Source: Candidatus Latescibacterota bacterium (lineage in GTDB: Bacteria; Latescibacterota; UBA2968; UBA8231). Taken from it: 64,000 bases of DNA. The notes under the pieces are model-generated. The model had not been told where the DNA came from. It saw only the letters and a program-made list of their open reading frames with translations, and ran no database searches. This document shows, piece after piece, positions 34,053 to 58,761 of this stretch; the first letter of the stretch is position 1; each line of letters starts with the position of its first letter. The stretch lies in assembly GCA_965203355.1 (NCBI GenBank), contig OZ241889.1, forward strand, positions 864,001-928,000, read 5' to 3'. Both the position numbers and the translations under genes were made by a program.

Positions 34053-34412
34053 TGGTGGAGGCGGCGGGAATCGAACCCGCGTCCGAGACCGGTTCTACCG
34101 AAATATGCTACGTGCGTAGTCGGCCTTAATTATCTCGCCTGTTGCGCCGCTGGCCAACGAGCCTCGCAACGAGCCAGCCCGAAAAATCTCGCCCCATTCC
34201 CTCGGGCGAAGGTTTGGGACCAGCCTGCTAAAAGATGACATTGGGGCCGGCCGCGCAGGCTCAACAGACCCCAATGGGCTGCGCTAAGTTTAGGCAGCCA
34301 GAGCGTACGTGTTAGTTTCGTCGCTTAATTTTGTTCCCGATGATTTACGAGGTGTCGGGACCTCGGCACGCAATTTGGGCTTCTCCGACCCCGTCGAAGC
34401 CAAGTCGCCCCC
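34053..34412 (-). ncRNA. ssrA: tmRNA; tag (A)DETNTYALAA
   Basis: 5' GGGGGCGAC..TTCGACGGGG; 3' GACGCGGGTTCGATTCCCGCCGCCTCCACCA; tag ORF 34322-34290 ending YALAA*; 360 nt. Confidence 0.97.
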
Positions 34413-56397: not shown

Positions 56398-57390
56398 ATG
56401 GACAAAATTCGCGTGGGATTTATCGGCTGTGGTGGAAATGCCAGCGGGCATATAGGTCGGGTACTCGACATCCCCGAAGCGGAAGTGGTGGCTTTGTGCG
56501 ATGTAGATCCGGCCAGTTTGCAACGCGCCAAAGATCGCAACGCGCGGGCGGCCGAGTTGCCGGAGTTTACCCACTACCAAAAGATGCTGGAGCAAGTCGA
56601 ACTAGACGCGGTAGAAATTTCCACGCCGCACACATTGCACTTTGAGCAGATCGTGGCTGCGCTGGACAAAGGACTACACGTGCTGACCGAAAAGCCGATG
56701 GTTTGCACTGTCGATCACGCGCGTCAAGTTATCGCCAAAGCAAAGGAGGCCGGCAAGATTTTGATGATCTCCTATCAGCGGCACTTGCAGGCGCAGTACC
56801 GCTATGTGCGCAATCAGATCGCGGCCGGGGAACTGGGGGATATCCAGTTTATATCGGCGCTCCAAGACCAGAAGTGGTATCAGGGGACGCTTGGGCTGTG
56901 GCGGCAGCAAATGGCGCTGTCGGGCGGCGGACAGCTCAACGACTCGGGCAGCCACCTGCTGGACATCGCGCTGTGGATGACCGGGCTGGAGGTGGCCGAA
57001 GTGCAGGCCTACATGGAGTATTTCGACTCCGAGGTGGACATTAACTCGGCACTGTCGCTGCGCTTTCGCAACGGCGCACTGGGGACGATTGCGGTGGTGG
57101 GCAACTCGCCGACCAGCGGGATATGGGAGGACATTACCATCTGGGGGACCAAGGCCGTGGTCTATATTCGCCAGGGAGCGGTTTTCTACAAGACGCAGCA
57201 CAGCAACGCGGTGTACGAAGTAAACAACTTGCCCGGCTCGACGACGCCCGACCAGAACTTCATCGACGCGATTCTCGGCCGCGACCAAGTGCAGGTGCCC
57301 CCCGAATGCGGCCTGCGAGTCATTGAATTAACCGAAGCGGCGTGGGCCGCGGCCGCTGGTGGGCAGCCGGTCAAAGTAAAAAGCATTTGA
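56398..57390 (+). CDS. Gfo/Idh/MocA oxidoreductase
   Basis: GFIGCGG, HVLTEKPM, GGGQLNDSGSHLLD. Confidence 0.93.
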   Translation: MDKIRVGFIGCGGNASGHIGRVLDIPEAEVVALCDVDPASLQRAKDRNARAAELPEFTHYQKMLEQVELDAVEISTPHTLHFEQIVAALDKGLHVLTEKPMVCTVDHARQVIAKAKEAGKILMISYQRHLQAQYRYVRNQIAAGELGDIQFISALQDQKWYQGTLGLWRQQMALSGGGQLNDSGSHLLDIALWMTGLEVAEVQAYMEYFDSEVDINSALSLRFRNGALGTIAVVGNSPTSGIWEDITIWGTKAVVYIRQGAVFYKTQHSNAVYEVNNLPGSTTPDQNFIDAILGRDQVQVPPECGLRVIELTEAAWAAAAGGQPVKVKSI

Positions 57391-57416
57391 CATGATTCTA
57401 CGGACTTTGTCATATT
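57387..57416 (+). promoter_or_regulatory. sigma70-type promoter of the intergenic RNA
   Basis: TTGACA-N18-CATATT with extended -10 TG; TGACA...TGTCA inverted repeat overlaps it. Confidence 0.6.
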
Positions 57417-57422
57417 AAAATT

Positions 57423-57723
57423 TAAGACGGGTTCGGGGGTCTAAAGCCTCTGTTGCCGCCCCGCCGAGGCCCGAGGCTACGCGAGCGGGCCAGCCCGGCT
57501 TTGTAATTGGCCGCAACGACGCGCAGAGTTGGAGTATGGATATGAGGCGCGCACAAGCGAAAGGAGGTGGTCCATTGAGTAGTAATTGTACCGCAGGGAG
57601 GTTGATCACTTGATCAACTCCAGGTGATTAACTACCTGGTCAGGAGCATTGTCGCTTCGGCGATATAGCTTCTGAGAGTACAGCCGGGCGCGCCCCACCT
57701 TAGAGGGTGCGCCCGGTTTTTTT
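57423..57723 (+). ncRNA. Candidate structured RNA / small-ORF transcript of unknown family
   Basis: Own promoter and terminator; four-way junction with a cUUCGg loop; GAAAGGAGGTGGTCCA complementary to the 16S rRNA 3' end. Confidence 0.6.
57683..57723 (+). terminator. Intrinsic terminator
   Basis: GCCGGGCGCGCCC / GGGTGCGCCCGGT stem ending in a T7 run. Confidence 0.9.
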
Positions 57724-57789
57724 GTCTGCGCTGTCCTAAGTTGGTTTCCACGCGGCATTTTTGCCATATTGTCCACGAGGAGGCCGTCT

Positions 57790-58761
57790 ATGAAACGCAT
57801 CGCCAAGCCCGCCGGGGCCTACAACATTTTGGTGGAAGAGGTCGAGGTTCCGGCGATTGCTCCGACCGAGATTTTGATTCGCGCTCAGTGTTCGTTGATA
57901 AGCCGTGGTTCGGAGATTTGGCGGCGCTACGTGCGCGAAGAGGCGATTGATCACCGCATGATGGGCTATTCGCTGGTGGGTCGGGTCGCAGAGGTCGGTG
58001 CGGAGGTCGCGGAGTTCAAAACCGGCGATCTGGTCGCGGCTCTCGCACCGCACGCTGAGTACGCAGCGGTCGAAGTCGTAGCCAGCCAGCACAAGCCGGC
58101 GGTCGTGCGCCTGCCAGCGGGTATGTCGCCCGAAGCGGGTACCTTCTGGCCGCTGGCAACCAGCTCGGTCCTGTGGATGTGGGAGACCGAGGCCGGGCCG
58201 GACGATGTCATGGTCGTCCAAGGGCAGGGTTTAGTCGGTAGCGGCTGTATGCAGGCGGCCAAAGCACAGGGGGCCGGGCGCGTCATTGGGATCGATGCTG
58301 TGCCTTTGCGATGCGACTTGGCGCACGAGTTGGGAGCCGACGCGGTGATAGATGCCAGCAGTGGTGACCCTGTTGCCCAAGTTTTGGAACGGACGGAAGG
58401 CGCAGGTGCCGACATAGTGGTCGAAGCGGTGGGTGGGCGGGCCGGGGCGCGGGCTTTTGCCGAGGCGCAGGACATGCTCAAGCGCGGTGGCCTCTTACAA
58501 GTGCTGGGCCTGTACGAAGACGAGCCCCTGCCGCTCTACTCGGGCAAAATCATGGGCAAGCGCCTCATCGGTAGCTATCTCGACGCCAGTCGGCGGCCCG
58601 AAGGGTCGGCACGTGCGTTAGAACTGCTGGCTGCGGATCAAATCCAATTTGCCAAGATGATTACCCACCGCTTTCCCTACGCCGAGGCTGCCGCCGCTTT
58701 CGACTTGCTCTACCATCGGTTGGGCGAGGCCATGGCGGTGTTGTTAAGGTGGGACAACTAA
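57790..58761 (+). CDS. Medium-chain (zinc-binding-type) dehydrogenase/reductase
   Basis: SLISRGSE, MGYS, GQGLVG, GADIVVEAVG, MITHRF. Confidence 0.88.
   Translation: MKRIAKPAGAYNILVEEVEVPAIAPTEILIRAQCSLISRGSEIWRRYVREEAIDHRMMGYSLVGRVAEVGAEVAEFKTGDLVAALAPHAEYAAVEVVASQHKPAVVRLPAGMSPEAGTFWPLATSSVLWMWETEAGPDDVMVVQGQGLVGSGCMQAAKAQGAGRVIGIDAVPLRCDLAHELGADAVIDASSGDPVAQVLERTEGAGADIVVEAVGGRAGARAFAEAQDMLKRGGLLQVLGLYEDEPLPLYSGKIMGKRLIGSYLDASRRPEGSARALELLAADQIQFAKMITHRFPYAEAAAAFDLLYHRLGEAMAVLLRWDN

Follow-up and report, generated by a model that had tools for sequence, protein, structure and literature searches.

A candidate 30S-docking small mRNA of the rre type in Candidatus Latescibacterota

We analyzed a 64,000-nt window of the genome of a Candidatus Latescibacterota bacterium (GCA_965203355.1, contig OZ241889.1, positions 864,001-928,000 of the forward strand; all coordinates below are those of this window), where an RNA gene is flanked by genes for an oxidoreductase (56398-57390) and a zinc-dehydrogenase-like protein (from ~57790). 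The predicted RNA carries an extended Shine-Dalgarno (SD) block complementary to the 3′ tail of 16S rRNA, followed directly by a very small open reading frame (sORF). We conclude that it is probably a small mRNA of ~300 nt that docks on the 30S subunit in the manner of the rre RNAs of alpha-proteobacteria, and whose slow, selected translation would remodel its own 3′ domain. As judged from sequence, it represents a new family that follows the rre principle, and does so in a new phylum.

The neighboring metG gene was used to locate relatives, the closest being Candidatus Latescibacterota metagenome-assembled genomes whose MetRS is at most 95% identical to that of the window. The 16S genes of five of five related genomes terminate ...GCGGCTGGATCACCTCCTTT|CT, and pairing was computed against these tails, with their mature 3′ end assumed, rather than against that of the host. 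The block GAAAGGAGGTGGTCCA forms 16 contiguous pairs with them, one of which is G-U, just as a sequence-only reading of this DNA had claimed. The first of these pairs presupposes a mature 16S with a C after UUU, one base past the end of the Rfam model, which we assume; the last two or three would need opening of the end of helix 45, given the boundary that we take this helix to have. When both strands of the window were scanned for stretches able to pair with the 16S tail, this was the only run of 16; the next longest, of 13 and 12, have three to four G-U pairs each and lie opposite helix 45 instead of the SD core. For the duplex we computed −29.0 kcal/mol; the corresponding values are −8.7 for GGAGG and −10.5 for the SD of the neighboring gene. 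No other run in the window exceeds 13. The further claim that the complement goes far beyond a normal SD is also confirmed. Thermus thermophilus is a candidate for a 16S ending ...GAUCACCUCCUUUCU.

The block is conserved well beyond the window. Its first 13 nt are invariant across 62 unique cores except for a GGAAGG variant, which is likewise the one variant of the near-invariant GAAAGGAGGUGGU; with an A-to-G variant in the block, a G-U pair with 16S is retained. The final CCA varies among the cores (TCA, TAA, CTA, CAA, CCG), and family-wide conservation amounts to 13-14 nt, the full 16 nt being found in the window. The comparison shows predicted complementarity of the block to the whole single-stranded 16S 3′ tail, over 13 nt family-wide and over 16 nt in the window.

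By BLAST, a homologue is present at 35 of 79 metG loci and a match in 48 of 167 genomes across the phylum, one of the 48 being a mere fragment (the match in G073, a 37-nt piece of the 5′ domain; this and a similar second match in G132 were not counted as members). A covariance model of the core finds the family in 59 of 150 Latescibacterota genomes (~40%), always in single copy. A search for the block-plus-start pattern in five unrelated genomes gave no match. One outlying member (L180, genome G043) has the same 13-nt block with an ambiguous sORF start (TTG or ATG), and a single long hairpin in place of the H1/H2 blocks described below, then a terminator; its ambiguous start and lack of the downstream blocks led to its exclusion from the set of 61 members used for the sORF and its blocks.

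The features of the RNA gene in the window, all on the + strand, are as follows.

57387-57416, +: sigma-70-type promoter (TTGACA, 18-nt spacer with TG, CATATT), with 10 of 12 positions matching
57423-57723, +: predicted transcript of ~301 nt, its start inferred from the −10 box and its end from the terminator T-run
57434-57548, +: structured 5′ domain, with predicted stems P1 (57434-39/57447-52), P2 (GGCCCG 57468-73/CGGGCC 57486-91) and P3 (57493-57504/57523-57535)
57455-57460, +: GCCGCC, predicted partner of GGUGGU (57566-57571) in the long SD, with GAAAGGA left free
57559-57574, +: extended SD block GAAAGGAGGTGGTCCA, 16 nt complementary to the 16S 3′ tail
57575-57613, +: sORF TTG-SSNCTAGRLIT-TGA, 12 codons (MSSNCTAGRLIT), starting 7 nt after GGAGG
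57588-91/57678-81, +: closing stem GTAC/GTAC around hairpins H1-H3, invariant in 35 of 35 sequences, so showing no covariation
57596-57602, +: internal SD-like block GGGAGGU in the sORF, its GGAGG ending 6 nt before the last sense codon
57599-57619, +: hairpin H1, AGGTTGATC/GATCAACT, loop ACTT, invariant in 35 close sequences
57605-57613, +: anti-SD-like block AUCACUUGA at the sORF end, holding the stop codon and lying in and beside the H1 loop
57620-57639, +: hairpin H2, CCAGGTG/TACCTGG, 100% of alignment cells paired
57640-57675, +: hairpin H3, TCAGGAGC/GCTTCTGA (57640-47/57668-75), with an apical GTC/GGC stem
57684-57723, +: intrinsic terminator, with a 12-bp G+C-rich stem (57684-57695/57705-57716), 9-nt loop and T7

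The sORF is retained, at 9-13 codons, in 61 of the 62 unique cores. It starts 6-11 nt past GGAGG with TTG (45), GTG (11) or ATG (5), and stops at one fixed place with TGA (56), TAA (3) or TAG (2). Its length has changed at least six times, always by a multiple of three. Where TTG is lost (L127, L129, L163-165), the same frame is recovered by an ATG lying 4 nt further on, and where the internal GGAGG lies one base nearer the start and one farther from the stop (L172-L182), the −1/+1 shift is compensated and 12 codons are kept. These in-frame indels, start and stop swaps and the compensated shift argue that the frame of the sORF is selected, and the sORF is probably decoded. The middle of the peptide is highly variable (MSSNCTAGRLIT, MSSTSTTGRWIT, MSTTTGRCIT, MESTGRSIT, MSSCIPAGGATT), with positions alternating between N/K/T/P, C/R/S and L/W/C/S, and AGRLIT in some members against AGGATT in others. 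Selection, we think, probably acts on ribosome binding and translation as such rather than on the 12-residue peptide. Of the micro-ORF proposed by the sequence-only reading, the stretch from TTG to the stop is the part that relatives keep as an open frame; the in-frame ATG codons at 57536/57542, suggested as further starts, are out of frame or absent in relatives and were discarded. A second mini-ORF (TTG ATC AAC TCC AGG TGA), overlapping the stop and well spaced from the internal GGAGG, was rejected by eye because it needs ACT as the last codon, where relatives have ACC and then CTG.

Conservation within and behind the sORF also concerns the RNA itself. GGAGGT is kept as RNA despite a change of frame, being read as GCA GGA GGT in L172-L182 and as A GGG AGG T in the window. 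The anti-SD-like block takes the form AUCACCUGA or ACCACCUGA in relatives; its AUCACCU or ACCACCU plus stop, conserved inside the sORF, resembles the 16S tail. A further conserved block, CCAGGUGAU or CCAGGUGGU, resembles the 3′ half of the SD, as does the 5′ arm of H2, and the 3′ arm of H2 is a repeat of the anti-SD-like block. The anti-SD-like block can form at least 7 contiguous pairs with the 3′ half of the SD in 61 of 61 members; 54 of 61 allow the same length of pairing with the CAGGUGAU block that comes next. Both counts are without a shuffled control. Read together, these SD-like and anti-SD-like repeats look like a switch.

Promoter and terminator suggest that this is a stand-alone transcript. 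The promoter is the sole promoter-like site that a promoter scan found within 56800-58300, and it is kept in homologues as TTGAC..TATATT or TTGAC..CATATT. The terminator stem came from the consensus fold; a simple terminator scan made no call at the locus because it was limited to loops of 3-8 nt and this loop has 9. Compensatory changes occur in 4 of its 12 pairs, and all 35 sequences have a T-run behind the stem. No long ORF is present on the + strand within 57390-57769. The earlier picture of a TTGACA promoter and a strong terminator bounding ~300 nt that lack a long ORF is thereby borne out. Strand is indicated by the minimum free energy z-score against shuffled sequence (−3.83 for the + strand versus −1.78 for the − strand) and by many invariant G-U pairs, which are possible on the + strand only.

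The consensus structure was derived with RNAalifold and pair counts from 35 full-length homologues that are 73-95% identical. It comprises 79 pairs, with 98.1% of cells paired. Changes on both sides are found at 23 of the 79 pairs, versus 9.8 ± 1.8 in shuffled alignments (none of 500 reached 23) and 4-8 in slid controls; they are concentrated in GGCYCG/CGRGCC (57468-73/57486-91), H3, the terminator and the first hairpin. Within the 5′ domain, 4 of 6 pairs of P2 and 2 of 6 pairs of P1 show compensatory change, and most of P3 shows either no variation or one-sided changes. The 5′ stems of the sequence-only reading therefore fared unequally: GGCCCG/CGGGCC, which is P2, is upheld by its covariation, but CTCTG/CAGAG and TTGC/GCAA, which are 86.3% paired and equaled by 103 of 500 shuffles, were dropped.

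The 3′ domain proposed in that reading, a closing stem around H1, H2 and H3, does fit the 35-sequence alignment, with the covariation located in H3, where 7 of 8 pairs show compensatory changes. At the position flanking the closing stem, 14 sequences have T-A, 5 have A-T and 16 have no pair. Two compensated positions are seen by eye in H1 of the distant members L126 and L128 (GGTTGATC/GATCAACT versus GGTGTATC/GATACACT). H2 is invariant or has one-sided changes only among the 35 sequences, with no compensatory change, and RNAalifold favors an alternative long hairpin in which the 5′ arm of H2 pairs with the end of the sORF. In distant members the GTAC closing stem is not kept and H3 is absent or moved.

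The helix between GCCGCC and GGUGGU of the long SD has 98.6% of cells paired. Its changes are one-sided (G-U to A-U in 16 sequences, C-G to U-G in 9), double compensation being absent because the SD side never varies. The single-sequence ensembles of 19 members contain no consistent partner for the 3′ half of the SD. We hypothesize from the consensus model that this helix masks the SD and leaves GAAAGGA as a possible toehold.

The belief of the sequence-only reading that this RNA is without precedent did not survive, as both the rre small mRNAs and Rfam family CC2171 are precedents. The rre RNAs were described by Hahn et al. (PMC5711450). In Bradyrhizobiaceae, the small mRNA rreB measures 165 nt; 17 nt of it are complementary to the 16S end, and its sORF of 14 codons starts with GTG. 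In Bradyrhizobium it co-sediments with 30S and is weakly translated (PMC5711450). Both the long SD extension and GTG impede its translation, and the start codon also affects how stable the RNA is; overproducing it did not alter growth, and Hahn et al. reasoned that it is unlikely to act as a simple sponge or by ribosome titration (PMC5711450).

The Latescibacterota RNA resembles rreB and rreR, as they are portrayed there, in several ways. It is predicted to be a small stand-alone transcript with its own promoter and terminator (both conserved among its homologues), with a 16-17-nt region complementary to the 16S 3′ end that includes the canonical SD and reaches the start codon. The start codon is weak, the sORF is tiny, and conservation of its peptide does not extend beyond clades; the 5′-most bases of the block are predicted to be free and the remainder paired. 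Where the rre definition asks for at least 16 nt of contiguous 16S complementarity including the SD, we find 16 nt, against the 16S of relatives; where it asks for a small ORF with a weak start directly behind the block, we find TTG at 57575 and 12 codons. In rre RNAs the complementarity also takes in the first G of the start codon, but here the run ends at A57574, and T57575 stands opposite a 16S C.

There are further differences. As reported, rre hosts are alpha-proteobacteria only. In contrast to the 165 nt of rreB, our RNA has ~300 nt, including a structured 5′ domain of 70-140 nt, and in 12 alpha-proteobacterial loci inspected by eye only ~25 nt separate a promoter-like box from the SD block. 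The sORF has 14-18 aa in rre RNAs (PMC5711450) and 20-49 aa in those 12 loci, but 9-13 codons in Latescibacterota. The start is GTG or ATG in rre RNAs, with its first G within the complementarity, and mostly TTG in Latescibacterota, where complementarity ends one base earlier. A conserved G-U wobble in the SD sets the Latescibacterota family apart, as do the SD-like and anti-SD-like repeats after the SD, none of which were seen in the 12 loci. Beyond the SD block we saw by eye no similarity to these loci, no formal alignment having been made. Finally, 30S binding and weak translation are measured for rreB, while the Latescibacterota RNA is known from sequence and library contigs.

The block-plus-start pattern occurs in 53 of 301 alpha-proteobacterial genomes, versus 2 for a reversed control. 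Five of the 53 (G370, which holds locus L185, and G185, G368, G213 and G388) have the same G variant, GGTGGTC, which forms a G-U pair with the 16S tail; a G-U wobble thus recurs at the same block position in Latescibacterota and these five genomes. Two pattern-found alpha-proteobacterial loci, L190 and L191, exceed the CC2171 cut-off with 83.4 and 82.1 bits, and we infer that CC2171 is an rre-type RNA. Hahn et al. (PMC5711450) do not mention Rfam or CC2171, and CC2171 has been confirmed by Northern blot in Methylorubrum, with no function given in the part of that report available (10.1101/2022.01.24.477521). Two weak matches to BjrC68, a small RNA of Bradyrhizobiaceae, adjoin or overlap rre-like elements (L181 202-275, 25.4 bits; L191 1353-1435, 22.5 bits; cut-off 39).

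A search of Rfam 15 at gathering thresholds found tmRNA alone in the window, with nothing at 57387-57723; the tmRNA gene (RF00023, 198.9 bits) is full length, at 34053-34412 on the − strand, and could serve as an internal standard for RNA abundance. At E ≤ 10, 57200-57900 yielded CC2171, P36 and folP only, all far under their cut-offs, and no SRP, RNase P, 6S or riboswitch, in agreement with the failure of the sequence-only reading to recognize any of these. That reading had called for such a scan and named a hit to a known Rfam family as evidence against itself; what the scan gave is a weak match to CC2171 (RF01867; 25.1 bits, E = 0.003, 57551-57715), which at a gathering threshold of 75 does not make the RNA a member, so that strictly a known family was not hit. 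Four of 11 other family members match CC2171 at 22-25 bits (22.3-25.1 overall), and seven have no match. The score of the window derives mainly from the SD block and the terminator. The likeness is nevertheless one of layout: the CC2171 consensus opens with GAAAGGAGGUGAUCCAGUG, the same block, then GUG, and continues with a multi-branch domain closed by a stem and then a terminator, and the window matches the model end to end. Our literature search found no rre-type RNAs outside alpha-proteobacteria.

Complementarity of this kind can also be found ahead of ordinary genes. In a Bacillota-type phylum, 20 of 201 genomes contain a 14-nt block plus start codon, versus 6 for the control; the matches mostly precede ordinary genes or unrelated small ORFs and were not counted as family. 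At one such locus (L199, genome G591) the block GAAAGGAGGTGATT stands before an ordinary gene whose product starts MAVKIRLRRMGAKRQPFYR and presumably resembles ribosomal protein S16. Because such blocks precede ordinary genes, the length of complementarity alone does not define the class.

Contigs of relatives from four metatranscriptomes, of four studies, were compared over 56800-58400 at 82% likeness. Contigs show neither strand, ends nor level, and their depth figures cannot rank genes; moreover, the runs were chosen for carrying the element, and DNA can occur in RNA libraries. In the wider search, 14 entries recorded as RNA contain part of the stretch, with word shares of 0.16-0.22 that are uninformative on habitat. 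On the element, each of the four runs has contigs of at least 82% likeness, whose pieces fall within 57427-57699. Summed peak-bin depth is 121 in X1, 4,594 in X10, 10,252 in X4 and 498,592 in X9, against at most 45 for flanking-gene contigs. The element is thus present in RNA libraries, and the depths are a strong hint of very high abundance. All four runs lack cover over 57286-57393, which is no evidence of a transcript boundary. The 5′ half (57448-57585) is deeper than the 3′ half (57610-57717) in three of the four runs (~10^5 versus 10^3 in X9, 4,594 versus 0 in X10, 10,252 versus 207-2,458 in X4), and X9 contigs enter sequencing-adapter letters right behind 57540, 57546, 57567 and 57574, the last of these being the last base of the block. 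There may be a stable 5′ fragment ending at the SD block; contigs cannot prove ends.

For the docking small mRNA that we favor, a mechanism can be proposed. The free GAAAGGA would nucleate pairing with the anti-SD tail, and the duplex would then spread through GGUGGUCCA, displacing the internal masking helix and yielding an unusually stable 30S-RNA complex (computed −29 kcal/mol). As the full duplex would reach the base before the weak TTG, leaving no spacer to the P site, initiation should be slow, as was measured for rreB (PMC5711450). A ribosome that does translate the sORF would encounter the internal SD-like block 6 nt ahead of the final sense codon and would stop inside the anti-SD-like block. 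For both that block and its downstream repeat, either the SD or the SD-like arm of H2 could serve as partner, and given these alternative pairings the passage of a ribosome would switch the fold of the 3′ domain. Candidates for the cellular output are control of the RNA's own stability, occupation of the 30S tail, and a signal of the level of free 30S. The sequence-only reading had offered a ribosome-binding RNA and a ribosome-stalling micro-ORF transcript as two options; the general idea finds its analogue in rreB, but the two options appear to be one, because sORF, RNA motifs and structure are all under selection.

Several points weigh against this interpretation. The 16S tails used are those of relatives of the window organism, with their mature end assumed. 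30S binding, translation and the transcript ends of this RNA are all predictions, and the run data, being contigs, leave room for DNA carry-over and are uninformative on strand, ends and level. The masking helix and the switch lack compensatory support, as the blocks involved hardly vary, and single-sequence ensembles give differing partners for the SD; likewise H1 plus H2 and the alternative long hairpin fit the data equally well. Features of the peptide do recur (an MSS start and a T end), so that it may have a role of its own. Very long SDs, as in the Bacillota-type phylum, occur on normal genes.

A possible objection is that the RNA is a purely non-coding binder of the 30S tail (a sponge, hibernation or maturation factor) and that the sORF is an accident of conserved motifs. 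Indeed, nucleotide conservation extends over most of the 3′ half of the sORF, where variable bases change together with H1, the internal GGAGGT persists even when read in another frame, and the very high depth in RNA libraries is what a stoichiometric binder would need; but in-frame indels, same-frame start replacement, interchange of stops and the compensated shift are hard to explain without decoding, and overproduction of rreB was without growth effect, its authors arguing against titration (PMC5711450). We consider this explanation improbable. Quite improbable, too, is an ordinary small-protein gene, with the 12-residue peptide as its product and the long SD serving expression: the ORF is maintained and the MSS N-terminus and T C-terminus recur, but the middle of the peptide varies freely, ~260 nt of surrounding non-coding sequence are conserved and structured, and the extension of rreB lowers rather than raises translation (PMC5711450). 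That the match is due to chance, or is merely a strong ordinary SD, has negligible probability even though some phyla have long SDs on ordinary genes; no second such run exists in the window, the run is invariant across 59 genomes and no long ORF lies behind it, and this conservation refutes the idea.

The remaining alternative is that the element acts in cis, as a leader or attenuator of the downstream dehydrogenase gene or as a 3′-UTR (untranslated region) piece of the upstream gene. Throughout the close clade its place is between oxidoreductase/metG and dehydrogenase genes, on the same strand, the order being metG-oxidoreductase-RNA-dehydrogenase or with the RNA right after metG. In five relatives (L018-L022) the RNA gene begins ~40 nt after metG, without an intervening oxidoreductase gene; relative to the RNA-metG linkage, this gene was either inserted or lost. 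A short ORF ahead of a terminator is moreover found in leader-peptide attenuators, which likewise are short transcripts with a tiny translated ORF and a terminator, translation of the ORF altering the fold; one such attenuator RNA, rnTrpL of Sinorhizobium, reportedly persists as a small RNA. But attenuators form the 5′ end of the operon that they regulate, with ordinary SDs and regulatory codons, whereas the Latescibacterota RNA has no conserved downstream operon, an extreme SD, an sORF 150 nt into the RNA and a conserved promoter of its own, and no anti-terminator alternative involving the terminator stem is seen in the consensus fold. In L122-L129 the neighbors are unrelated and often divergent, on the opposite strand, and the element is therefore part of no operon. 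We regard a cis-acting role as very improbable.

A bolder form of the small-mRNA reading holds that the RNA, or a stable 5′ fragment of it ending at the SD block, is a very abundant clamp on the 30S anti-SD tail, with the sORF and the alternating SD-like and anti-SD-like blocks as a ribosome-operated switch, such that trans-acting RNAs gating or reporting translation initiation globally evolved separately in Latescibacterota and alpha-proteobacteria. We put this forward tentatively, as unlikely at present; if true, it would point to a general class of anti-SD-directed riboregulators that escaped notice.

Small mRNAs with a 16-17-nt SD have been described once before, in alpha-proteobacteria, with three later citing papers found by a title-word search. 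That their design recurs in an unrelated and uncultivated phylum is an argument for its being useful in itself at the ribosome. This second family supplies independent constraints, namely the conserved wobble, an internal SD-like block at fixed distance from the stop and duplicated anti-SD-like blocks, which can guide work on how long SDs affect initiation, ribosome release and RNA stability.

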